IMG/VR virus record: IMGVR_UViG_3300025327_000039
Coordinates: 1-52,948 of that record
DNA from: a virus
Lineage: Duplodnaviria > Caudoviricetes
Length of the DNA stretch: 52,948 nt
Direction: 5' to 3' (one strand)
The position numbers and the translations under genes were made by a program. Shown piece after piece: positions 6,192 to 51,078 of this stretch. The notes under the pieces were generated by a model, which saw only the letters and a program-made list of their open reading frames with translations, was not told the origin of the DNA and did not search any database. How positions within the stretch are numbered: position 1 is the stretch's first letter; each line of letters begins with the position of its first letter.

Positions 6192-9158
6192 ATGCGCGAC
6201 GTACTAGAGTCCGTTCTGACCAGCCTAAGAAGTGGCGACACCGACTATGCTTCTGCGCTTCTTACCGATGCTCTGAACCAAGATGTTGAGGAGGAGGCGC
6301 TGAAGATCATTGGCAGTGCCTTCATCGCTGTCAAGGAGGGCAAGACCGAAGAGGCAACGGATCTCCTTCAATCTGCAATCGGGACAATTAGCTCTAGCAA
6401 TGGGAATGGCACCGGCTCTTCGGATGTAATCGTCGAGGCAGAGTGGAGCGCCGAGGAGATCAACAACCTTCCTGACAGCTGCTTTGCCTTTGTCGAGCCC
6501 GGCGGCAAGAAGGACAAGGACGGAAAGACAACTCCACGTAGTCTTCGACACCTGCCCTACAAGGATGCCAAGGGCAAGGTGGATATGCCGCATCTTCTGT
6601 CGGCCCTCTCCCGGGTGAATCAGATCAAGCTCAAGGGTGGCGGCAAGATCTCCTCTGCCAAAGCCACGCAGATTCGCAATCACCTGCGTGGGATGATGAG
6701 CCAAGGTAAGACTCACGAGGCTGCTCGTGGGGGTATAGCCGAGGATCATCGACACGGAGAATGTGAGGACGGCACTTGTCCTTATGAGCACGTAGATGAG
6801 TCTGCTCCTGTTGAGACAGACGAGGGAGTCACCTTTGTCTCCGAGGCGATGGGTATCATCGAAGAGGCCTTCCCCTCCGAGCCCAACGTCTACTTGGCAA
6901 CCATTATCCAGTCCGGTAGCAGCAAGAACCGCTACTACTGGCGCCCGGACACGCTGGAGCGCAACACCAGGATGTTCGAGGGGGTCAGGGCCTTTGCCGA
7001 CCACCCGACCAAGACGGAGATGGCAGAGCGACCGGAGCGATCCGTCAGGGACATTGTAGGTTGGTACGAAGGTGTCTACTGGGTACCGAACGGGATGGGT
7101 GGGGGCTCTCTGAAGGGCAAGATGCACCTTCTTGAGGGTCCAGTAGCGGATATAGTCCGTGAAGCACACACACGTGGCAAGCCGGATCTCGTACAGCTGT
7201 CGGTTAACGTGAGTGCTCGGCACTCGCCGAAGTATATCGATGGCGTCCTTGTACGAGAGATCTCCGAATTAGTTAGGGTCCACTCCGTTGACGCTATCAC
7301 CGAGGCTAGCGCCGGCGGCTCAATAGACCGAGTGGTCGCCTCGGACAAAAACACCAAGGAGGTGGAAGCTCTAATGTCTCTAGAAAATGCTTCCCCTGAA
7401 GAGTTCATAGCTGCTGTCGCGGAGCGCCCTGAGGTGAGAGAAGCTCTTGCCTCGCACTTCGCACCAGGCGGCGAGGCGGCCGCGAGCTCGGCAGGGGACC
7501 CAAGCCCGGATCCGGTAGCGGATCCAGTACCTGACCCAGCACCTGCTCCCGACCCGGCACCGGCGCCACCGGACCCAAGTCCGGCACCGGCTGCTGATCC
7601 GGCACCAGTAGTTGAGGCTGCCTCTGCGGAGAGCATCCAGCAACTCACTGAGTCTCTCCGAACTATCCAAGAGGAGCGGGCTGTCGAGCAGTCCGCACGC
7701 GCTCTGGACGAGATCCTGTCTGCGAGTCGCCTCCCAGAGCCGATCGCGAACATGATCCGTGCCCGCTGGGCTGGCAAGATCTTCGAGCGAGTCGCTCTCG
7801 AGGAAGAGGTGACCGCACAGCAGGCTGCTCTGGCGGCCGTGATGGTGGCCCAGCCACCTTCCACAGTTCCGTGGGCTGCTGCGGCAGACGCCCCACAGGA
7901 TCGCTACGTCAAGGCCATGGACGGGCTTCTGGCGGGCGAGGACGTCGATGGCGTCAAGGCCTTCCGCTCGCTGAAGGAAGCCTTCTGCGTCATCACTGGA
8001 TCGCACGTCTTCGACCTGACCGGATACGAAGTCCTCGAGTCCGCTGGGCGCTACGACTCCGGCGTGTCCAACCGCGGCTTGGATCGGGTCGTAGAGGCCA
8101 CGGCGATGAAGACCTCCGACTTCGGCAAGATCCTCGGCGATAGCATCACGCGCCGGGCTCTCATAGAGTACCGCTACCCGATGCTCCAGGACTGGCGCAA
8201 GATCGCAACTGTGGCGCCTACCTCCGACCTGCGTGAGCAGAAGAGGGAGCGCCTCGGCGAGTTCTACCTGCTGAAGCGTGAGAGTGGTGTGGGTGCGTCC
8301 AACCAAGACATCACCTACGCCGACCTCACCGGTGCAGCGCTGCCGGAAGAGGAGGCCATCTACCAGCCGGTCAAGGCACACGGCCAGGCCAGCCTGACCC
8401 TGGAGATGATCATCAACGATGACATCGGCAAGTTCCGTGCGCTTCCCCAGAAGCTGGGTCGTGCGGCTGCCGGTACCATCTACATCACGGTGTTCGACTT
8501 CCTCATCGACAACCCTGCCGAGTCCACCTACCTGACCAGCGGTGGCGCTGACAGGCTGTTCGATGTGGCAGCTGCTCGCTCCCCGGGCAACATCGTGACC
8601 GACACGCACAGCATCCTGTCCGCGATCGTGGCCCTTAACGATGCCAACCTGTCCGATGCCTTCATGCGCTTCCAGATCCAGCAGGCAGCGGTCAGCGCTT
8701 CGGCGCCGTACTCTGGAGCTGTCGCACACAGCTTCATCATGAGCTCTCCGAAGACTCTGGTCGTCGCTCCGACGAACAGGGCCATGGGGCTCGCGCTGCT
8801 CAATTCCGAGACGAAGGTGGGCGCAGGAAGCCATGAGGTGAACATCCACCGTGGCATGTTCGAGCTGCTCATCATCCCGTACTGGGAGACAGCAGCCGAT
8901 CGTGGTAACGCTGGTGGTGACACCCAAGCACCGAAGAACATCTGGGTTCTGGCCGCAGGTCCTACCGAGATCCCGATGATCGAGGTCGGCTTCCTGAACG
9001 GCCGCGAGGAGCCCGAGATCTTCGCACAGGACCAGAGCACGGAGCTGGTCGGGGCGATGTTCACCAACGACCGCATCACGTACAAGGTCCGCCACTTCTG
9101 GGGCGCGAACCCAATTGACCACAGGGGGTTGGTCGGAGCCACATTCTCTAGCCTCTAG
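6192..9158 (+). CDS. Fused prohead protease / scaffold / major capsid protein (Mu gpT-like C-terminal domain)
   Basis: Protease-like block SKNRYYW..FADHPT..ERSVRDIVGW..LSVN..SVDAITEASAGG, then a Pro-rich linker and helical scaffold. Capsid block: TSDFGKIL..EMIINDDIG..LGRAA..IEVGFLNGREEPEIF..YKVRHFWG..DHRG. Confidence 0.85.
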   Translation: MRDVLESVLTSLRSGDTDYASALLTDALNQDVEEEALKIIGSAFIAVKEGKTEEATDLLQSAIGTISSSNGNGTGSSDVIVEAEWSAEEINNLPDSCFAFVEPGGKKDKDGKTTPRSLRHLPYKDAKGKVDMPHLLSALSRVNQIKLKGGGKISSAKATQIRNHLRGMMSQGKTHEAARGGIAEDHRHGECEDGTCPYEHVDESAPVETDEGVTFVSEAMGIIEEAFPSEPNVYLATIIQSGSSKNRYYWRPDTLERNTRMFEGVRAFADHPTKTEMAERPERSVRDIVGWYEGVYWVPNGMGGGSLKGKMHLLEGPVADIVREAHTRGKPDLVQLSVNVSARHSPKYIDGVLVREISELVRVHSVDAITEASAGGSIDRVVASDKNTKEVEALMSLENASPEEFIAAVAERPEVREALASHFAPGGEAAASSAGDPSPDPVADPVPDPAPAPDPAPAPPDPSPAPAADPAPVVEAASAESIQQLTESLRTIQEERAVEQSARALDEILSASRLPEPIANMIRARWAGKIFERVALEEEVTAQQAALAAVMVAQPPSTVPWAAAADAPQDRYVKAMDGLLAGEDVDGVKAFRSLKEAFCVITGSHVFDLTGYEVLESAGRYDSGVSNRGLDRVVEATAMKTSDFGKILGDSITRRALIEYRYPMLQDWRKIATVAPTSDLREQKRERLGEFYLLKRESGVGASNQDITYADLTGAALPEEEAIYQPVKAHGQASLTLEMIINDDIGKFRALPQKLGRAAAGTIYITVFDFLIDNPAESTYLTSGGADRLFDVAAARSPGNIVTDTHSILSAIVALNDANLSDAFMRFQIQQAAVSASAPYSGAVAHSFIMSSPKTLVVAPTNRAMGLALLNSETKVGAGSHEVNIHRGMFELLIIPYWETAADRGNAGGDTQAPKNIWVLAAGPTEIPMIEVGFLNGREEPEIFAQDQSTELVGAMFTNDRITYKVRHFWGANPIDHRGLVGATFSSL
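7497..7607 (+). repeat. Coding Pro-rich (D/A-P) repeat linker in the capsid polyprotein
   Basis: DPSPDPVADPVPDPAPAPDPAPAPPDPSPAPAADPAP. Confidence 0.85.
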
Positions 9159-9184
9159 TAGTCCTTCTAGGGGGGTGTACGAGG

Positions 9185-9224
9185 GGGGAGGCTGTTGCGG
9201 GGCAGTCTCCCCTCTTGGATTTTG
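9185..9224 (+). terminator. Intrinsic terminator-like hairpin after the capsid gene
   Basis: GGGGAGGCTG pairs with CAGTCTCCCC, followed by a T-rich tail. Confidence 0.6.
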
Positions 9225-9251
9225 TGTCCTCTGGCAGCTAGACCTTAATCT
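9222..9251 (+). promoter_or_regulatory. sigma70-like promoter, 18-bp spacer
   Basis: TTGTGT (9222-9227), 18 nt, TAATCT (9246-9251). AGGAGG SD precedes ATG 9271. Confidence 0.55.
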
Positions 9252-12065: not shown

Positions 12066-12104
12066 ACACAATACATGTATATGTACATGTATATGAAGCA
12101 GAAG

Positions 12105-34711: not shown

Positions 34712-34894
34712 TGCAAGTTGTCGGTCGTGGGTCAGCAGCTTAGGGTGTCGCAACCAACCAATATCCAGCAGCTTTGCCACGACCAGAGCGGAATGGTAGC
34801 AGGCGTCCCTGTGAGATGTCAAGGTGGAAGCTTACATAATGAGAGGCAAAAGTCCGGTGTACGCGTACATGTACATATACATGTACATGTACAA

Positions 34895-42897: not shown

Positions 42898-43089
42898 TCA
42901 CTTAGACAACAAAGGTGCCAGCTGCTCTTTCAACTCGCGAATGGTGTCCTCCAGTGAATCTACTCTTCGGTTGATGGCTTCCAGTGCGCTGTCGGCATCG
43001 CTTGGGTTGTCTCGGCGGTGTGTAGGGAGCTGAGGGGGCAGGGAATGTCCGGGGTGTGATTCTTTCTTCCCTTGGCGCTCAGCCATCAT
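42898..43089 (-). CDS. Small coiled-coil hypothetical protein
   Basis: Overlaps the ATPase stop; heptad-like C-terminus. Confidence 0.45.
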   Translation of the reverse strand: MMAERQGKKESHPGHSLPPQLPTHRRDNPSDADSALEAINRRVDSLEDTIRELKEQLAPLLSK

Positions 43090-44972
43090 CCTATCCTATC
43101 CACGAGATCATCAAAGGTGGCGTTGATCATCTCTTCGCCCGTCAGTTCAGCATTAAGGCCGCAGTCTTCAATCCTGAGCGTGTAGGTAGGAAGTCCGGCT
43201 TTGGGCTGCTTCTTGGCCTGCAATCGGATGACCACATCGGCCGCCCTACTAACCAGCTTGTCCCCCTGTGCCTTCTGCCCTGTTATCTGTCCCTCGGCAC
43301 CGTAGAGATCCGTGTCGTGGTGGATGAAGATGACATTACGTCCGGAGTCGCGGGCAGAGGATAGCAGGCGCCTGAAGAAGTCGTTGCGCATCGTGTACTG
43401 TATCCAAGGTTGATTGGCAGGTGCTTTCTTTTGAAGTACATGGCCGGCGATGTTGAACACCAAAGTTCCAGTGTCGATCACCGCAGTTCCGCCCGGAGGT
43501 AGGCCGTACTTCTCTACTAAGGTGTTATCCACCATCTCGAACCAATCTGTCTCGAACTGGTCGAGGATCTCCCTAGCGTTTTCGATGTCCTCTGCCTTCA
43601 GACCTCCCTTGTTGTCTTTTGACTTGATCCGGCCGACATAGTCGGTCACGACAATCAAGCCACCAGCATGCCGCTCAGCAAATGAAGGGACGATGGGAAT
43701 ACTATCGCTGGAGGCCAGCATGCTCTTCTCGACTCTATCGTAGCCGCGGTCGAAGTTGTAGAGATAGACCGGGGTGGGAGCTGTCATGCCCCAGCGCGTC
43801 TTGCCGGAGTTGTGTACCAAAATGTTGTTGGCGATGAAGGAGTGGCCCTCGGGAACACTGAGGTCGTATGTGGGTTGTCTTAGAGTCTCCTCGCGCTTGG
43901 AGATAATGGGATCCCAAAGGATGTCTCCCATCCCCTCTCTGTGGAGGCCAGAGGGTCTCTTTATCCTACTGGTATATGTTTTTAGATTTGTTACAAGCTC
44001 GTTTAGCCTCCTGTTCTTCTCTCCTAGTAGACCTATCTCCTCGGCAAAGATCTGGATTGCTTGCCGGTTGGTGGTTATCACTGTCCAGTATTGTTGCGGT
44101 CTGCCCATCACCCTTCTCGGGTAGAGTCTGGTAGCAATTCCGTAACGGAGCAGGAGGTGTTGGACATCTAGTGCTAACCTCTTAGAGGCCGAAGAGTAGC
44201 CCAACTCCAAGCTGGTTACACGACCATCGTCCTCGTTACGGAAAGAGATCCACCCATCGCAGGTTATGAGTCGATTAAGGAACAGTGAGAGCAGCTTCTT
44301 GCTCAGTCTGAATATCGATGGCGAGACGTACTTCTCCGGAGAGCGGTGGTGCAAGATCTGCTCGTGCTTTAGCCAGTCTTGTAGGGGGTTCGGCCTTCCG
44401 CGAGCCACGGTAGCGGCCAAGGTAACAGTCTTCCCTCTTCTGGCTCTCAACACAGCTCTTCTACCTTGAAGTTCCTCCGCTGCGGTACTGAACCTATCCA
44501 ACACAATTGGATCTGCGTTTGTGAAAGCCAGATGGGGCATATATCCATCACCGAGCAGGAAGGCAACCAGCTCGACCAGAGGTTCGGGCAGTTCATCTGT
44601 ACCAAAGAATGGGATGGTAGCAGCAACAGCGATCTTGTCGCCTACCCGTAGCTCTCGCAGCTCCTGCCAGCCTCGACTTTTCTCGAGAACAGGGTGATTA
44701 GCTGTGGCTGTCAATTCGTGACCGAGCTGGGTACGGATAGTGTAGACCTGCTTTAGACCGTTGGTGTAGATGTGTTCAGCGTCTGTAGCTTGCAGCTTGA
44801 CAGTGTCCAAAGATGCTACGACCGGAGGCGCTAGCAGATCGCTTACCGGCCTGTAGGCTCCTGTATGGGCATCCAGTATTCGGGTACTCGGAGCTAAGCA
44901 CTTCTCTCTACCCCAAACTTCGATGATGTAGTAGGGGCTTCTTTCGCGCTGATTGACCGGCTTGAATGGCAT
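43086..44972 (-). CDS. AAA/RecA-like ATPase (AAA_24/Sak4-like), intein-containing
   Basis: Spliced Walker A GREKSGKT, NFDRG, Walker B AVIDT, NVIFIHH. Adjacent to the PD-(D/E)XK nuclease and SSB-like genes. Confidence 0.75.
   Translation of the reverse strand: MPFKPVNQRERSPYYIIEVWGREKCLAPSTRILDAHTGAYRPVSDLLAPPVVASLDTVKLQATDAEHIYTNGLKQVYTIRTQLGHELTATANHPVLEKSRGWQELRELRVGDKIAVAATIPFFGTDELPEPLVELVAFLLGDGYMPHLAFTNADPIVLDRFSTAAEELQGRRAVLRARRGKTVTLAATVARGRPNPLQDWLKHEQILHHRSPEKYVSPSIFRLSKKLLSLFLNRLITCDGWISFRNEDDGRVTSLELGYSSASKRLALDVQHLLLRYGIATRLYPRRVMGRPQQYWTVITTNRQAIQIFAEEIGLLGEKNRRLNELVTNLKTYTSRIKRPSGLHREGMGDILWDPIISKREETLRQPTYDLSVPEGHSFIANNILVHNSGKTRWGMTAPTPVYLYNFDRGYDRVEKSMLASSDSIPIVPSFAERHAGGLIVVTDYVGRIKSKDNKGGLKAEDIENAREILDQFETDWFEMVDNTLVEKYGLPPGGTAVIDTGTLVFNIAGHVLQKKAPANQPWIQYTMRNDFFRRLLSSARDSGRNVIFIHHDTDLYGAEGQITGQKAQGDKLVSRAADVVIRLQAKKQPKAGLPTYTLRIEDCGLNAELTGEEMINATFDDLVDRIG
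43809..44900 (-). mobile_element. Intein with LAGLIDADG homing endonuclease (364 aa)
   Basis: K|CLAP start, TANHP block B, FLLGDG and LITCDG motifs, YDLSV..FIANNILVHN|S end. Confidence 0.95.
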
Positions 44973-45001
44973 TCCCTCTCTCCTCTTTGCTTACTTCTCT
45001 C

Positions 45002-45205
45002 TCAACCGGTTACGTGCTCGGCGCTTGGCTCCCCTTCGAGTCCTGCTATCCAGCGATCCAGCCATGCGGAGACGACTGAGCGCAGCTCCTCGGCGTCTGC
45101 ACACAGATACATGTCGTCTTGATACGTGCTGACACTACTCTGTTGCAGGACAGCGTAGCCGTCCTCCAGTTCCTTGATATCGAATGTGAGCTGCGGTCGT
45201 CTCAT
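45002..45205 (-). CDS. Hypothetical protein
   Basis: ATGA overlap with the nuclease stop (MRRPQLTF...). Confidence 0.45.
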   Translation of the reverse strand: MRRPQLTFDIKELEDGYAVLQQSSVSTYQDDMYLCADAEELRSVVSAWLDRWIAGLEGEPSAEHVTG

Positions 45206-46122
45206 TCTTCTATTCCCTCCAAGGCACCTGCTCTGTATTTGCAATCAATGAAGTGTCCATCGTACATGCACCGTCTTCCCGGTGAGGGAGGAAAAGCAGA
45301 GGCAGCATGTGCAACAGCCTCTGGGTCATCACGCCAGAGGGCAATGTCTCCCATCTCGGCGTACAGCTGCTTTAGGGAGCGATCGATGTCTCTGGCGGTG
45401 TGCTGCACGTAGGCAAGGAACCAATCGATGTCCTGCTGGGTTCTTGTAGTGGTATGTGCCTTGATTGACACTCCCCTGTCCCCACGAATGAGCTCGATGA
45501 ATTGCAGGAGTGTTGGTTCTCCTCTGAGTGCTGCGTACGTAGTCGGTTGCAGATCGAAGTCCATGCCGTCCCAAGAGGACGACCGCTTACGGACCTTCCA
45601 GTCCACTACTACTCCGGTCTCGTCCTCGAGATCCAAGATACCCACTAGCTTCTGTACGTACTCTCCAGGTAGTGCTAGCTCTACCCGTCGCTGTACTGCT
45701 TCTGGCTGGATCATAGCTGCGGAGCGGAGGGGAACGAAGTCTGCCTCATCCTCAGAAGCCCACTCCTTTTCGAAGTAAGCTAGGATAAGCTGATCTCCTT
45801 GCTTGACCATTGTCTCCTTCTCTTCACCGCGCCAGAAGGGGCTCAGGGTGGCAAGCAGCGATCTTGGTTGGCCAGCGTCCTCTGGTATGTCATGGTCGAA
45901 CGCCTCGTGGAAGATGGCAGTGACTACCTCTGGGGCCAGGTACTGACCAGTCTCTTGCCTGTGGCGGCTGCTCTCACTCAGAGCCTCGTCTATCGCTCTA
46001 CCAAGAATCATCACCGCTGTAGGCTTAGACTCTCGGCCAAGTACGTAGTGTCCGAACCAACTATGCTTACACTCGGCGTAGAGCTGAAGACTGCTATATG
46101 AGAGATGCGTCAGTTCTTCCAT
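45202..46122 (-). CDS. PD-(D/E)XK exonuclease (RecB/Cas4-like)
   Basis: HLSYSSL..C, GILDL, VDWK, QPTTY, C-terminal Cys cluster. Confidence 0.85.
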   Translation of the reverse strand: MEELTHLSYSSLQLYAECKHSWFGHYVLGRESKPTAVMILGRAIDEALSESSRHRQETGQYLAPEVVTAIFHEAFDHDIPEDAGQPRSLLATLSPFWRGEEKETMVKQGDQLILAYFEKEWASEDEADFVPLRSAAMIQPEAVQRRVELALPGEYVQKLVGILDLEDETGVVVDWKVRKRSSSWDGMDFDLQPTTYAALRGEPTLLQFIELIRGDRGVSIKAHTTTRTQQDIDWFLAYVQHTARDIDRSLKQLYAEMGDIALWRDDPEAVAHAASAFPPSPGRRCMYDGHFIDCKYRAGALEGIEE

Positions 46123-46223
46123 GGGGTGTCGCCCCCCTGAGGTAGGGAGGGGGACGACGGAGCACACCGCCACACCGTGTCAAGCGCAAACCGAATCGTG
46201 CTCTCGTCGCCCCCCACGAGAGC
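46123..46223 (-). promoter_or_regulatory. Four-segment alternative RNA structure controlling the nuclease RBS
   Basis: Mutually exclusive stems A:B, B:C and C:D; segment D contains the AGGGGGG SD. See findings. Confidence 0.55.
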
Positions 46224-46894
46224 TAGCCGACCTTCTTGTACTCCTTGCCCTCGATGGACAGTAGCCTCTGGTCGATAAGCGAGGTCAAGAGAGACCGGTT
46301 GGCCACTCTTGTCTTCAATGGGGCGAACTGCGCATCCTCGGTGACCGCGGTGATGATCTGGCCGTAGCTCTTGCCATCACAGAGGTCGACGAGTGAGGCG
46401 ATCAGATCCGGGTCGTCTGCGGCCGGTCCTGAGCCGTTGTCTGCACCACCGACAATGCTCTTGACGATAAAGTACACGATGGTGCGCTTCTCGCGATTCT
46501 CGTTGTCGGTCTTGCAGTCGCCGCAGTTGTTCTGCCAGCGCTCGTGCTGGCTGCAGGCGATGCGCTTCGGCAGCATCTGGTCTTCGAACTTCTTGCCGGC
46601 AATGATCTTCTTGCCGATCAGATCCCCGGCGTCGGTGAGCTTGATGCCGGCATCGCGGAGGGAGTTGACGAAGATTCCCCACTTGCTGTTCGTGCGGTTC
46701 GAGAGCTTGATCTCGAACTTGACCTCGTCGCCTTCGTCTGGCTCCAAGGTTAGCAGCAGGGACTTGTCGCCCCATGTGCCGATGCCGATCTCCGCGTTGG
46801 TAATGAGGTACGCGGCATCCTCTTCGATGGAATCCTCCGGGCGTGTGAAGCCTTCCTCCAGCTCGTCGGGATTCCAGATGGGATCGTCAGCCAT
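46223..46894 (-). CDS. Putative single-stranded DNA-binding (OB-fold) protein with Zn-binding insert
   Basis: Acidic, with YLITNAE and DLIGKKI patterns and a C-x2-H-x5-CxxC insert. Lies in the recombination module; strongly biased codons. Confidence 0.5.
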   Translation of the reverse strand: MADDPIWNPDELEEGFTRPEDSIEEDAAYLITNAEIGIGTWGDKSLLLTLEPDEGDEVKFEIKLSNRTNSKWGIFVNSLRDAGIKLTDAGDLIGKKIIAGKKFEDQMLPKRIACSQHERWQNNCGDCKTDNENREKRTIVYFIVKSIVGGADNGSGPAADDPDLIASLVDLCDGKSYGQIITAVTEDAQFAPLKTRVANRSLLTSLIDQRLLSIEGKEYKKVG

Positions 46895-46971
46895 TTTCTC
46901 TTCCTTCTCCTTACAGACTCAAAGCAATTGATGCGCGGGTTGTCGGGTTCTGGCTGGTCGATGTGTTTCTG

Positions 46972-47538
46972 CTAGGCACCTCCAGTCCAGCGCTGGCTGA
47001 CCTCGCCCAACGCCTTGCGGATCTGGTCCTCGGAGCTGCCCTCCGGTCCGGCCTCTTCGCCCAGATACTTCAGATCTTGGTCAAGGTCCCACTGTGCGAT
47101 CAGGAAGTGCTGGTCTCTCTGGCCCAAGATCACGTGCCCGGTCACGATCGGGTCGACTGCTCGCCGGAAAGTGTCTGGTCTAGGGTCGTGGACGATGATC
47201 AGGCCTGCACCGAAGATTGGCAGGGCGATGTCGATCTTCACTCGGACATGTTCTGGGATGGAGCCTGTGTACTGCGCCAGTGGACCATTGAACCAAGTAG
47301 GCGGGGGGGTGAATGGGTCGAAGCCGGCATCGAGGGCCTGAGCAACAATGCACAGGGATCGTAGTTCTGCTCCCCGCTCGACTCCGATCTGACGAGAACG
47401 CATCCACTCCTTCGTCTCCAGTAGGTCATTGTGCAGGGATACGTAGCTGCGGATCAGGTCAGCAGTGTCACCTTCTCGGATCAGCTCTTGGATCTCTAAG
47501 CGCCCGGTATCGAGGATAGCAATGGTCATCTTCCTCAC
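46972..47538 (-). CDS. Hypothetical protein
   Basis: Strong GAGGAGGGAGG SD. VDPIVTG..FLIAQWD motif. Confidence 0.6.
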   Translation of the reverse strand: MRKMTIAILDTGRLEIQELIREGDTADLIRSYVSLHNDLLETKEWMRSRQIGVERGAELRSLCIVAQALDAGFDPFTPPPTWFNGPLAQYTGSIPEHVRVKIDIALPIFGAGLIIVHDPRPDTFRRAVDPIVTGHVILGQRDQHFLIAQWDLDQDLKYLGEEAGPEGSSEDQIRKALGEVSQRWTGGA

Positions 47539-47616
47539 CTCCCTCCTCTCTCAAAAGATGGAGCCGCCAAGCAGTTATACACCCGCTGAAAACTCTTTGG
47601 CAAGTCCCTTGGCGTG

Positions 47617-48039
47617 CTATTTTTCAACATCCTCTTGGTTATTGTCTAGTGCCTCTGCGAAGAGCTCACTCAGGTCTTCTATGACCTTAGCTACCGGCTC
47701 CATGATCTTGCAGAGCTCGTTCATGACTTCGTTCATCTTTCGGGCCATTGCTGTCATCTGGGGAGCAAGCGCCGCCAGGTCTGGTGCCCAATCCGCGTAG
47801 GGAGGCTGTATCTCTGGGTCCCGATCCAGCCTTGCAGCCAAGACCTGCCCATCGTAGGTGTCGCCAAGCTTTGTACCATCCGGAGGCACGTATGTCAGGT
47901 CAGCCCGATCCGGACCCGGTATGTGCTCGCACTCCCAGCTTGCCCCGCAGACATCGCAGAGTTCGTCTTGCATCAGAAACTCGTGAGAGGCTCTGAGTGC
48001 TGCGGCCAGAGGGGGGCATAGTTCTGCGTGGTGCTCCAC
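47617..48039 (-). CDS. Hypothetical protein with CxxC motif
   Basis: CDVCG..CEH, helical C-terminus. Confidence 0.45.
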   Translation of the reverse strand: MEHHAELCPPLAAALRASHEFLMQDELCDVCGASWECEHIPGPDRADLTYVPPDGTKLGDTYDGQVLAARLDRDPEIQPPYADWAPDLAALAPQMTAMARKMNEVMNELCKIMEPVAKVIEDLSELFAEALDNNQEDVEK

Positions 48040-48092
48040 TCTACTTTGTTCCTAGGCATCGGTTCTCGTTGATCCTGCGGGCTCTGGTGGTG

Positions 48093-50684
48093 TCATAGGA
48101 TCCTGTCACGTATCCACTTGGGGAAGTGGGAAGGATACCGAGCCATCTGCCGCCTTATTTGTCCATCGAGCACGTAGGCCATCGCATGATCAGTCTCCGA
48201 TCTCATGCCTCTACCACAGATCTGGATGAAGGTGGAGTTAGCATCATACGAATAGGCCTCGGGGTCTTCCGCTTGTCTGAGTCTAGTAAGTGGGTCGCTC
48301 ATGTCGGGGAATGGCCACTTACAGATGATCTGGTATCGGCAGATGTCATCGTCTCCGCTGAAGCCCATGCCCATCGAAGGTGACACGAGCACCGGTGGTC
48401 CTTCCATTCTACGGAAGCGGTCGATCACGGCGCCCCTGGTTCTTGTGTCGTGCGTCACCATCTCGTGTCCGAACTGGCTGTGCTCGAGTAGATAGTCCCT
48501 GATCCTGTAGGTCGCAGTATGTATAATGCCGCGGTCCGGCAAGTGGTCGTTGAGCAACGAGTCCACGGCCTTCACAAGTGCTGGCAGCTTCTCCTGCAGG
48601 TTCATCCTGTTCAGAGCTGCTACCGGCCTGATGATGATAGGAGCACGGGTAGGGTCGAAGGTTGATGGTACCTCTATGAACTCGTAGCTTCCCTCCTCCA
48701 GACCGAGACGCTTTGCTGTCTTGGGGGAGGGCAGCAGTGTGGCGGACATTACCACTACCTTGCCCTTTGAGCGGCCGAACAGTACTGATGTGTGCGCTGA
48801 GGCCCAGACTGGTACCATCTCTAAGTTCCCGTTCTTGAGTGTCTGGATGAACCACTGGCCGGACTCGGGAGCAGCTCTGATCTTGCCCAGTGTGCGCGTG
48901 ATGCGGTCGAGCTCCCGTATGTTGTGCAGCATGCGTTCCTGCTCATCGTCCAAGCCATCAGCCCTGCCTGGTCCCATCTGCCCCAGCTCTTCTGCTAGCC
49001 GGCGCCGTGCGTTGAGCACCATGGGCAGTATCTCACCTGCCCAGTCGGCATAGGCCTTCTCGTCAAGTAGCAAGGGCAGGGCGATCTTCCAGCGCTCGCA
49101 GAGCTTGGCCGAGAGGAGGATCTTCGTGCTGCTGATGACAGCGTCTTCCAGCTCGTGTCCTTCGTCAGCAATGAGATTGTCTGGCGGCAGGAACAGGTTA
49201 GCTTCCTGGGAGCCGGCCAGCCACATGGCGTAGGAGAACACGATCTCCTTCGCGGTTCTCGTCTTGCGCATCTGTACGAAGTAAGGGCAGACGTCTTGTT
49301 TGAAGCACTTCCATCCAGTCTGGCAGATGGCCTCAGACACCGTGTGCTCCTCTTGGTTGGGAAGGATGCAGTTGAAGTTGTCCTTGCCCTTCACAATTGT
49401 CAGCTCGGGAAACAGATCGTGGTATTGCTGCTGCAGTGAGATCGTTCGTGTCAGGATGTGCCCTTGGCCTGTACCAGCTAGGGCTCTGATGGCGCCCAAG
49501 GCAATGCCACTGTTGTGGGTGACCGTGAAGTCGCCTAAGAGATAGCGTCCGTCATCATCGACCTCTAAGCCGTAGTAAGATCCTCTATCCTTTTGAGCCA
49601 CTCTGAATCCCGTTCTGAGTACGTCCTTCTTCTGCCGACGTGGGCTGGCCTTCTTTCTCTCCACACGGCAAGAAATGGTGCTGAGGTTGCCGGAAATGCT
49701 GACTCGCCAGTAACTGCCGGTGAAGGCATTCTGGCAGGATTTTCGACAAGGGAGGATGTAGGCAGCAAGGCCAAGACTACGGGCTAGGAAGGCGACGTCC
49801 TCTGCTAGCTGTTGGGATGCGGAAATGTAATCGTAGCAGCCATTAGCCAAGTGTCCGTCGGTGTCGAGCAGCCCAGCTAGTAGCTGTAAACGGGCATGTC
49901 GGGACGAGGTTTTGTAGGCATGGGGTATGTACTTCGCCTTACTTGATACTGCGAGACCCAGTTTGCGGATGGTTTGTAGCAGAGGGTTGGCCCGTCCTCC
50001 CGTGCGTCCGCTGCTGAAGTGCATGTGGAGGGCCCCTTGTCGCCATCCCCTTCGCAGGATCAGTCCCCACGTCTGTGCCTGTCTCTCTGCCTCGCTTACG
50101 ATCTCCGGGTCGGGATTGGTCAAGTAGATGCCCTTGTGGAGGGAACCATCGCCCAGCAGCAGGCCGAGAAAGTAGGGGTCGACTGGCAGCTTCCTAGTTT
50201 GGTGGGGGAAGGAGACCCCTGTGCGAAACAGCTTGAAGATATGCTTTCTATAGCGAGGCCACTCAGACCACTTGTAGAGTGGGACATCAACAGTTAGGCC
50301 TGCCACATCAGACGGCCAACGGTTGCCGGTCTTGGTTTTGACCAGGGTTAGGACGTGGTTACTGTTGACAATCCAAGGCTGTCCCTTCACCGGTTGGATC
50401 TCGTACAGCTCGCCGCGGCCCTCACTGGTAGACAGAACTCTTCTAGGCTTGCTATCCGGACCCATTAGGCGGTCGCCAGCTTTGATCTCTTCAACAGGCC
50501 TGATCTGACCGCTATGCAACAGGACCGGAGTTCCCCTCCCCAAGCATTTCCCGGATCCTGTTGGCGCAACTAACAGGATGACCTTCTTCGTTGAATTGAC
50601 AATCGACTCCAAGGCTTCCTTCTGATGCTGTCGCCAAGCATCGTAAGGCAGGTTTAGGCTACGTGGATTGTTAGGAATCTGCAT
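48093..50684 (-). CDS. DinG/XPD-like SF2 helicase with Fe-S cluster motif, intein-containing
   Basis: Q-motif WRQHQ, APTGSGK|S, four-Cys cluster (NFNC..C..C..CPY), DEGH, MSATL, KWPFP, QICGRGMRSETD. Confidence 0.9.
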   Translation of the reverse strand: MQIPNNPRSLNLPYDAWRQHQKEALESIVNSTKKVILLVAPTGSGKCLGRGTPVLLHSGQIRPVEEIKAGDRLMGPDSKPRRVLSTSEGRGELYEIQPVKGQPWIVNSNHVLTLVKTKTGNRWPSDVAGLTVDVPLYKWSEWPRYRKHIFKLFRTGVSFPHQTRKLPVDPYFLGLLLGDGSLHKGIYLTNPDPEIVSEAERQAQTWGLILRRGWRQGALHMHFSSGRTGGRANPLLQTIRKLGLAVSSKAKYIPHAYKTSSRHARLQLLAGLLDTDGHLANGCYDYISASQQLAEDVAFLARSLGLAAYILPCRKSCQNAFTGSYWRVSISGNLSTISCRVERKKASPRRQKKDVLRTGFRVAQKDRGSYYGLEVDDDGRYLLGDFTVTHNSGIALGAIRALAGTGQGHILTRTISLQQQYHDLFPELTIVKGKDNFNCILPNQEEHTVSEAICQTGWKCFKQDVCPYFVQMRKTRTAKEIVFSYAMWLAGSQEANLFLPPDNLIADEGHELEDAVISSTKILLSAKLCERWKIALPLLLDEKAYADWAGEILPMVLNARRRLAEELGQMGPGRADGLDDEQERMLHNIRELDRITRTLGKIRAAPESGQWFIQTLKNGNLEMVPVWASAHTSVLFGRSKGKVVVMSATLLPSPKTAKRLGLEEGSYEFIEVPSTFDPTRAPIIIRPVAALNRMNLQEKLPALVKAVDSLLNDHLPDRGIIHTATYRIRDYLLEHSQFGHEMVTHDTRTRGAVIDRFRRMEGPPVLVSPSMGMGFSGDDDICRYQIICKWPFPDMSDPLTRLRQAEDPEAYSYDANSTFIQICGRGMRSETDHAMAYVLDGQIRRQMARYPSHFPKWIRDRIL
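49512..50546 (-). mobile_element. Intein with LAGLIDADG homing endonuclease (345 aa)
   Basis: K|CLGRGT start, NSNH block B, LGLLLGDG and LAGLLDTDG, YYGLEV..DFTVTHN|S end. Confidence 0.95.
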
Positions 50685-50722
50685 GTGCTCTCACCTTTGT
50701 TGTCTCTCGAACATGTTTTCTG

Positions 50723-50753
50723 TCTTACATTCTTACATTCTTACATTCTTACA
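50723..50753 (+). repeat. 8-bp tandem repeat (TCTTACAT)x~4, left arm of inverted pair
   Basis: Read directly from the sequence. Confidence 0.95.
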
Positions 50754-50777
50754 ACTAGGAGAAGTGAACTTCCGGTG

Positions 50778-50806
50778 TTGACAGAGGCCGGGCGGGTGCT
50801 TATCCT
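50778..50806 (+). promoter_or_regulatory. Near-consensus sigma70 promoter firing into the repeat array, antisense to flanking genes
   Basis: TTGACA, 17 nt, TATCCT. Confidence 0.65.
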
Positions 50807-50858
50807 TAGGGAGCCCCGACCGACCAGAGGGCCTATCTCTTTCCTCTTCCTTTTCCTT

Positions 50859-50996
50859 TACTATACATATACATATACTATACATATACATATACTATAC
50901 ATATACATATACTATACATATACATATACTATACATATACATATACTATACATATACATATACTATACGTATACATATACTATACGTATACATATA
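50859..50996 (+). repeat. 17-bp AT-rich tandem repeat x8 (TACTATACATATACATA); putative replication origin core
   Basis: Six identical units, then two with A>G (TACTATACGTATACATA). Confidence 0.9.
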
Positions 50997-51034
50997 GGTG
51001 TACGAGCAGATACCGGAATTGAACTGCGTCTACC

Positions 51035-51065
51035 TGTAAGAATGTAAGAATGTAAGAATGTAACC
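51035..51065 (-). repeat. 8-bp tandem repeat, right arm (reverse complement of 50723-50753)
   Basis: TGTAAGAA x3 + TGTAA on the + strand. Confidence 0.95.
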
Positions 51066-51078
51066 ACGAATTCATGTT

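Follow-up and report, generated by a model that had tools for sequence, protein, structure and literature searches.

What does the long, G+C-rich gap between two neighboring phage genes do? We ask this of a linear IMG/VR virus record of 52,948 nucleotides (nt) (IMGVR_UViG_3300025327_000039; hereafter the window), an uncultured phage contig estimated to be 56% complete, in which a 100-nt spacer lies between a gene for a 223-amino-acid (aa) protein, plausibly a single-stranded DNA (ssDNA)-binding protein (SSB), and the gene for a PD-(D/E)XK nuclease. The gene block around the spacer lies on the minus strand throughout. An original prediction had read the spacer as an RNA switch in which a ribosome terminating on the SSB gene masks the first of four RNA segments (A), lets the second (B) capture the third (C), and frees the nuclease ribosome-binding site in the fourth (D). 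Our folding and comparative data point elsewhere, and we tentatively favor a scenario in which the spacer acts as a static RNA stem-loop between the two cistrons, setting the ratio at which they are expressed without being operated by the ribosome.

Four pairing segments and one dominant hairpin

The features on which this argument depends, with the segments read on the minus (mRNA) strand, are the following.

46894-46226, stop codon TAG at 46225-46223, minus strand: upstream gene, 223 aa, probable oligonucleotide-binding (OB)-fold, ssDNA-binding-like protein (open reading frame [ORF] and predicted fold)
46222-46123, minus strand: spacer, 100 nt, 69% G+C
46223-46216, minus strand: segment A, GCUCUCGU, the first G of which is the last base of the TAG stop
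46215-46198, minus strand: segment B, GGGGGGCGACGAGAGCAC, forming the 5' side of the dominant hairpin and opening with the 10-nt repeat GGGGGGCGAC
46166-46197, minus strand: apical part of the hairpin, where inner helices bring B:C to ~27 pairs (minimum free energy structure)
46165-46148, minus strand: segment C, GUGCUCCGUCGUCCCCCU, forming the 3' side of the dominant hairpin and able to take B or D as its partner
46151-46144, minus strand: C-rich tract CCCUCCCU, partner of the Shine-Dalgarno (SD) G-run once B:C has formed (pair list)
46138-46128, minus strand: segment D, AGGGGGGCGAC, an SD-like G-run with the second copy of the 10-nt repeat
ATG 46122 to 45205, stop codon at 45204-45202, minus strand: PD-(D/E)XK nuclease gene, 306 aa (PF12705, PHROG exonuclease families, homologue N termini)

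The original prediction had placed the four segments, the stop codon, the nuclease ATG (46122-46120), and a GTG at 46173 correctly, and its reading of the minus strand agrees with ours; its pair counts of 8 for A:B, 17 for B:C, and 11 for C:D, along with the competition of B and D for C, were all reproduced. The A:B helix is made of Watson-Crick pairs only (hairpin, -14.5 kcal/mol). The B:C helix carries one bulged A (46204) and one G.U pair (duplex, -35.4 kcal/mol), because of which it escapes a plain repeat search, and the C:D helix carries one G.U pair (hairpin, -21.5 kcal/mol) and includes AGGGGGG at 46138-46132. GGAGG-type motifs precede many genes of this phage, and this heptamer, placed 9 to 10 nt before ATG 46122 (the gap from G-run to ATG is 9 nt), is therefore a credible SD sequence; the C:D pairing does take in the nuclease SD, as had been proposed. 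All three helices are mutually exclusive through their common strands, with B and D as rivals for C. The 10-mer common to B and D occurs in exact copies at these two places only in the 52,948 nt (both strands), and its only other nearby match is an inverted copy in C with 1 mismatch.

At equilibrium, a single helix prevails among the three. When the 5' and 3' flanks were varied in 25 combinations, the core of B:C had a probability of 0.80 to 1.00 (mean, 0.98) whether or not A was masked by a ribosome footprint (46243-46216), while the probability of A:B averaged 0.01 (maximum, 0.20) and that of C:D averaged 0.02 (maximum, 0.19). The best structure that combines A:B with C:D lies at -49.7 kcal/mol (ensemble, -52.1) versus -53.2 kcal/mol (ensemble, -56.9) for B:C, which puts the ensemble of the former state 4.8 kcal/mol above that of the latter. 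The energies of the bare four segments are almost balanced (-36.0 kcal/mol for A:B plus C:D versus -33.2 kcal/mol for B:C). A ribosome-triggered capture of C by B thus finds no place at equilibrium: B:C dominates regardless of A, an observation that the original prediction had itself named as speaking against its model.

Nor does formation of B:C free the ribosome-binding site of the nuclease, as had been supposed. Masking A changed little: averaged over the 25 contexts, the SD was unpaired at a probability of 0.26 instead of 0.16 and the AUG at 0.59 instead of 0.39, and the cost of opening positions -18 to +12 at the nuclease start went from 16.5 to 16.1 kcal/mol. The SD stays closed in the B:C state because its G-run pairs anew, either with CCCUCCCU (46151-46144) or with CCCC (46126-46123); the helix between the SD and CCCUCCCU has a probability of 0.71 in the free RNA and 0.67 under the ribosome mask (141-nt context). 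That the nuclease SD is mostly paired is a part of the original prediction with which our folding agrees.

Both the B:C hairpin and the exact B/D repeat exceed chance expectation. The 76 nt from 46220 to 46145 that form the hairpin fold at -41.8 kcal/mol (z = -3.68; 1 of 200 shuffles as stable), and the hairpin ranks 4th of 21,152 among 70-nt windows on both strands (mean, -18.1; standard deviation, 5.1). Two of the three that rank above it were looked at and fall in intergenic spacers, one with a U-rich, terminator-like tail; the third lies at 7578-7509 on the minus strand. Of 5,000 dinucleotide-preserving shuffles of the 106-nt spacer sequence, 16 contained a direct repeat 10 nt or more in length, and just 1 combined such a repeat with an ungapped stem of 11 pairs or more. 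The A:B-like stem is ordinary by the same measure, since 4,508 of the 5,000 shuffles hold an ungapped stem of at least 8, and the fold of the region as a whole is within chance (146 nt, z = -0.80, 39 of 200 shuffles; 109 nt, z = -1.35, 17 of 200 shuffles). Within a set of 10 spacers from this gene block, the spacer studied here has a G+C fraction of 0.69 versus 0.36 to 0.57 for the others and the strongest fold per nucleotide (-0.50 kcal/mol/nt).

A hairpin at the same place in a diverged relative

Scans of IMG/VR with four alignments all returned one contig, L005, the only diverged syntenic relative that we have (nuclease 56% identical, upstream protein 37%, 188-aa gene 51%). Its spacer is 76 nt long and has no meaningful sequence similarity to that of the window. 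From the last base of the stop codon to the AUG, however, the L005 spacer is one hairpin of -50.0 kcal/mol (z = -5.65; 0 of 200 shuffles as stable) that ranks 1st of 2,728 windows. A post-stop CUCCU pairs with the SD GGGAG in this hairpin, and the SD remains paired under ribosome masks (0.01 to 0.15 unpaired). The four-segment layout is not kept: the L005 spacer has no competing A:B and no repeated motif shared between a 5' arm and the SD. Nor is the complementarity between stop-proximal and start regions exceptional in either phage, as 5.8% of all 17-mers and 14% of G+C-matched ones do as well in the window, and 18% and 14%, respectively, do as well in L005.

Closer copies of the locus are invariant across the spacer. 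One metagenome locus (L002), 99.25% identical to the window, has 32 differences in 4,277 nt and 0 of them in 46123-46225; a second (L003) has 0 differences in the spacer, and contigs of four DNA runs hold no variant in 46123-46225. An exact 18-mer match in IMG/VR (L004) was discarded as a chance match, as it lies inside a coding region and has no other similarity to the window. Other searches were no more productive: blastn set for distant similarity against GenBank phages gave no match, tblastn with the nuclease gave one Bacillus phage match at 23% identity that is uninformative for the spacer, IMG/VR scans with single proteins and a profile search of genome contigs with one protein alignment found no relatives, and a search of 45900-46500 against Rfam (E ≤ 10) returned 4 matches with E values of 1.3 to 6, all far under the gathering scores. 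Comparative evidence is thin, and what there is points to the hairpin, rather than the four-segment layout, as the robust feature that keeps its position.

A proposed static intercistronic stem-loop

The dominant fold is a long hairpin of -42 kcal/mol in which B:C is extended to ~27 pairs, with no U-tract. It begins 8 nt past the upstream stop codon and ends 10 nt ahead of the nuclease SD, and its quasi-continuous intercistronic helix has the length of about two turns or more that RNase III-type and stabilizer hairpins require; the helix of L005 is comparable. In the scenario that we favor, this hairpin would part the two cistrons posttranscriptionally, either by blocking 3'-to-5' decay of the upstream message or by acting as a double-strand-specific processing site. 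The nuclease would be left with a structured, low-efficiency initiation region that keeps its output low, and one transcript would thereby yield abundant binding protein and scarce nuclease. A single read-through transcript fits the absence of a U-tract and of promoter and terminator consensus sequences: a sigma-70 promoter scan found none in the spacer, a TTGACA located in the loop of the hairpin lacks, by eye, a usable -10 element, and a terminator scan of 44500-48500 returned 0 sites.

Hairpins with such roles are well known. The RNase III sites of phage T7 are processing hairpins. According to PMC7509114, intercistronic stabilizer or processing hairpins include those of the puf operon and the REP elements, and 3' hairpins that block exonucleases, as well as segmental stability inside operons, are established. 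Like these, the helix here is long (~27 pairs), G+C-rich, and imperfect, lacks a U-tract, and lies where one cistron of a transcript gives way to the next, the first of which plausibly needs higher expression than the second. Unlike these, it is a predicted helix, and the established hairpins have no counterpart to the copy of the 5' arm that sits inside the downstream SD.

That copy is one of several points that weigh against the static hairpin. The scenario leaves unexplained both the exact 10-nt B/D repeat (16 of 5,000 shuffles) and the near-isoenergetic bare states (-36.0 versus -33.2 kcal/mol). At 16.8 kcal/mol to open, the nuclease initiation region ranks 9th among 44 genes and so is not unusually closed, and the errors of nearest-neighbor energies are comparable to the 3.4 to 4.8 kcal/mol that separate the two states. 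There is no covariation to appeal to, the near-identical copies being invariant in 46123-46225 and the diverged relative being a single one, and no RNA run was found to hold the stretch. Were the static hairpin nonetheless the right reading, the spacer would be an ordinary case of a phage drawing unequal amounts of protein from one transcript, and its main use would be for annotation, by marking the spacer as structured, correcting the start of the nuclease, and adding a small new family of OB-fold proteins beside a Sak4-like annealase.

Ribosome-operated alternatives

The form in which the four-segment switch best survives is a kinetic one, a one-way license issued by the ribosome in place of an equilibrium switch, and we consider it unlikely. 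Untranslated RNA would be trapped cotranscriptionally in an OFF state in which A holds B and C:D holds the SD. A ribosome terminating on the upstream gene would melt A:B, B would invade C:D by way of the free 5' half of C (a toehold), and the RNA would end locked in B:C with the ribosome site of the nuclease more open, so that nuclease would be made only from messages translated through the binding-protein gene. In its favor, the exact repeat in B and D makes their competition for C nonrandom, and the bare states are near-isoenergetic. Estimated direct-path barriers, which are upper bounds, fall from at most 15.0 kcal/mol for the passage from OFF to ON to at most 9.1 kcal/mol once A is masked, and the reverse passage faces at most 18.4 to 19.9 kcal/mol. 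Opening the ribosome site costs 22.3 kcal/mol with A:B enforced versus 16.8 kcal/mol with A masked.

Monte Carlo folding, performed with a custom script that makes single-pair Metropolis moves in an arbitrary time unit, bears on both sides of the matter. All four runs that started in the A:B state remained there for 4.8e5 to 1.28e6 units. Chain growth was simulated in 4 runs at 2,000 or 8,000 units per nt (one of which ended 3 nt short), and this elongation is probably far quicker than real transcription and hence biased toward kinetic traps. One of the runs ended with all 11 pairs of C:D, as the kinetic model would have it, but two ended with all 17 pairs of B:C, including the one with four-fold slower elongation, and the last formed neither helix and placed the SD on the C-rich tract. 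The 8-bp register of A:B was absent at all logged points in all four chain-growth runs, because A pairs first with the G-run of B. In runs that began with C:D in place and A masked, B:C was reached in 0 of 4 within 0.9 to 1.3e5 units, although these were short runs. The path estimates allow a kinetic version of the switch, and a simulation as crude as this one cannot settle the kinetics.

The remaining evidence runs against a kinetic switch. Its OFF state is disfavored by 4.8 kcal/mol at equilibrium, where A:B and C:D have mean probabilities of 0.01 and 0.02; its ON state still costs ~16 to 17 kcal/mol to open; and L005 has no comparable layout. When the mask was extended to 46210, C:D became dominant (0.845) and the SD closed, the reverse of what the original prediction had proposed, and the direction of the effect therefore hinges on the footprint that is assumed.

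The kinetic switch would have a familiar logic. Attenuators of the erm/cat type are four-segment leaders in which pairing of segments 3 and 4 holds the SD of the regulated gene and a ribosome on segment 1 favors pairing of 2 with 3. The spacer resembles them (compare PMC5118997) in having four segments in a row whose 1:2, 2:3, and 3:4 pairings exclude one another, in that 3:4 (C:D) contains the SD of the regulated gene, and in that a ribosome on segment 1 (A) would favor 2:3. It differs from them in that the upstream ORF is a conserved gene for a 223-aa protein, where an attenuator has a short leader peptide on which stalling is programmed; in that termination, and not stalling brought on by a drug, would be the trigger; in that the ground state is predicted to be 2:3 (B:C), not 1:2 plus 3:4; and in that 2:3 pairing does not free the SD. 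A real kinetic switch would mean that the logic of attenuation is here run by normal termination on a full-length gene, as a safeguard against making the nuclease before its partner DNA-binding protein, and it would offer a testable design principle for recombination modules and synthetic operons.

Plain translational coupling by RNA unfolding, in which bases right behind the stop codon close the base of the hairpin by pairing with the start region of the nuclease and a terminating ribosome opens this closing helix to expose the AUG, is a further explanation that we doubt. Pairing of 46219-46212 with 46119-46126 has a probability of 0.80 in the 141-nt context, where the ribosome mask takes the AUG from 0.06 to 0.74 unpaired. 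The L005 spacer, all of which is one hairpin with the post-stop CUCCU on the SD GGGAG, would suit this explanation as well. The closing helix, however, is context dependent: averaged over the 25 contexts, the mask takes the AUG no further than from 0.39 to 0.59 and leaves the opening cost as it was, the SD is paired under the mask in both phages (unpaired probability of 0.07 in the window and 0.01 to 0.15 in L005), and the flank complementarity is unusual in neither.

Coupling by RNA unfolding is known from phage f1 genes VII/IX and from MS2 coat-lysis, and the model is established for other gene pairs, as PMC12548453 relates. The two genes here are likewise co-oriented phage genes, with predicted structure around the downstream ribosome site that reaches the end of the upstream ORF. 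Unlike in f1 and MS2, their spacing is +100 nt rather than an overlap or a few nt, and the helix that a ribosome could open is weak, context dependent, and statistically ordinary. Two studies cited in that review also speak against this explanation: coupling changed gradually over distances of +50 to +850 nt (Levin-Karp et al.), and structure just past the upstream stop codon correlated negatively with coupling (Chemla et al.).

Less probable readings: protein sites, neutral origin, or termination

The three copies of a 10- to 11-nt motif (B and D direct, C inverted) could serve as sites for a trans-acting factor, either as a DNA operator, with C and D 21 bp apart, or as an RNA site for a translational repressor, possibly the upstream protein itself. 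We hold this to be improbable. The motif is exact only here in 53 kb, the repeat exceeds chance, and an offset of 21 bp between C and D is about two helical turns, but the spacer has no promoter-like site, no gene for a DNA-binding regulator was identified adjoining it (Pfam, PHROG), L005 has no similar motif, and RNA pairing fully accounts for the arrangement.

We give similarly little credence to the view that the spacer has no function and that its hairpin and repeat are neutral products of local template switching or duplication in sequence rich in G and C runs. The whole-region fold is indeed not significant (z = -0.80 and -1.35), and there is a single diverged relative. Set against this are the rank of the B:C hairpin (4th of 21,152), the independent hairpin at the same position in L005 (1st of 2,728), and a G+C content far over that of the neighboring spacers.

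Least probable of all is a leaky factor-independent terminator or pause site that cuts read-through into the nuclease gene. In its favor, a very stable G+C-rich hairpin comes straight after a stop codon, and two of the three more stable hairpins are likewise intergenic, one with a U-rich tail, but there is no U-tract past the hairpin (the next bases are CCCUCCCUACCUC) and no site in the terminator scan, and the same is true of L005.

The nuclease and its start codon

The identification of the downstream gene as a nuclease, already part of the original prediction, is upheld: its product is of the PD-(D/E)XK type, matches PF12705 (E = 2.1e-13), and matches PHROG exonuclease families. The Pfam profile begins at residue 6. 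In a 7-row alignment, four homologues with 53 to 58% identity start within a few residues of ATG 46122, the near-identical P0002 shares the start of the window nuclease, and P0007 is truncated N-terminally. Possible N-terminal extensions upstream exist in both the window and L005 and are unrelated to each other. Judged by these comparisons, the nuclease start is ATG 46122. The GTG at 46173, a start that the original prediction had entertained, is excluded by the start of the Pfam profile, the N termini of the homologues, and the unrelatedness of the upstream extensions.

Within the nuclease gene, 45718-45859 is hypervariable: these 142 nt contain 23 of the 32 differences that separate the window from L002, and the same variants recur in contigs of four DNA runs, a pattern that suggests two alleles or a recombination mosaic.

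The upstream protein

The SSB label attached to the upstream gene is no more than plausible. The 223-aa protein has no Pfam or PHROG family match, even with five relatives included, and its family is small (9 proteins at E ≤ 1e-3 in a search of 1.84 billion representatives). It is conserved up to its C terminus in 5 relatives. An AlphaFold (AF2) model built from six sequences (predicted local distance difference test score [pLDDT], 76) shows an OB-like barrel and a helical C-terminal domain. Foldseek found 0 matches to this model in the PDB at E ≤ 1e-3, the best being PrgE (2.7e-3) and a mycobacterial SSB (1.6e-2). In BFVD it found 19 matches at E ≤ 1e-3, with DUF669 proteins and one SSB-named protein among them, at template-modeling (TM) scores of only 0.24 to 0.32; DUF669 and two SSB-named viral proteins span E values of 6e-4 to 5e-3, the second SSB-named protein lying at 5.1e-3. 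It is from the predicted OB-like fold and these weak matches that the SSB label draws its plausibility.

None of the five aligned relatives of the upstream protein has the Cys-rich insert, CSQHERWQNNCGDC, found at residues ~113 to 130, where model confidence is low. It may be a zinc-binding loop.

Other features of the gene block and the window

The rest of the gene block around the spacer includes the following.

47538-46975, minus strand: 188-aa gene (ORF)
past the nuclease gene in block order, minus strand: an 80-aa ORF and then a Sak4-like ATPase with an insert (ORFs, PHROG)

Apparent intein-like inserts are present in both the Sak4-like ATPase (43086-44972, 628 aa) and a helicase (48093-50684, 863 aa); the L005 homologue of the former is 286 aa only, with both ends collinear.

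Upstream of the helicase gene lies a 394-nt spacer (50685-51078) with 36% G+C. It contains 8.1 copies of a 17-nt tandem repeat, TACTATACATATACATA, at 50859-50996, flanked by inverted 8-nt tandem arrays (TCTTACAT, 3.9 copies, and TGTAAGAA, 3.6 copies). The RNA fold of this spacer has a z of -17, and the spacer looks like an iteron or origin-like region.

Further structured elements occur elsewhere in the window. At 9151-9235 on the plus strand, after a 988-aa gene, a strong hairpin followed by UUGGAUUUUGUGU is terminator-like and belongs with the window's most stable folds. Of all 70-nt hairpins, the most stable (34998-34929, minus strand; z = -4.4) adjoins overlapping palindromes of the TGTACATGTACA type at 34858-34893, inside a 525-nt spacer, and a palindrome similar to these lies at 12074-12095.

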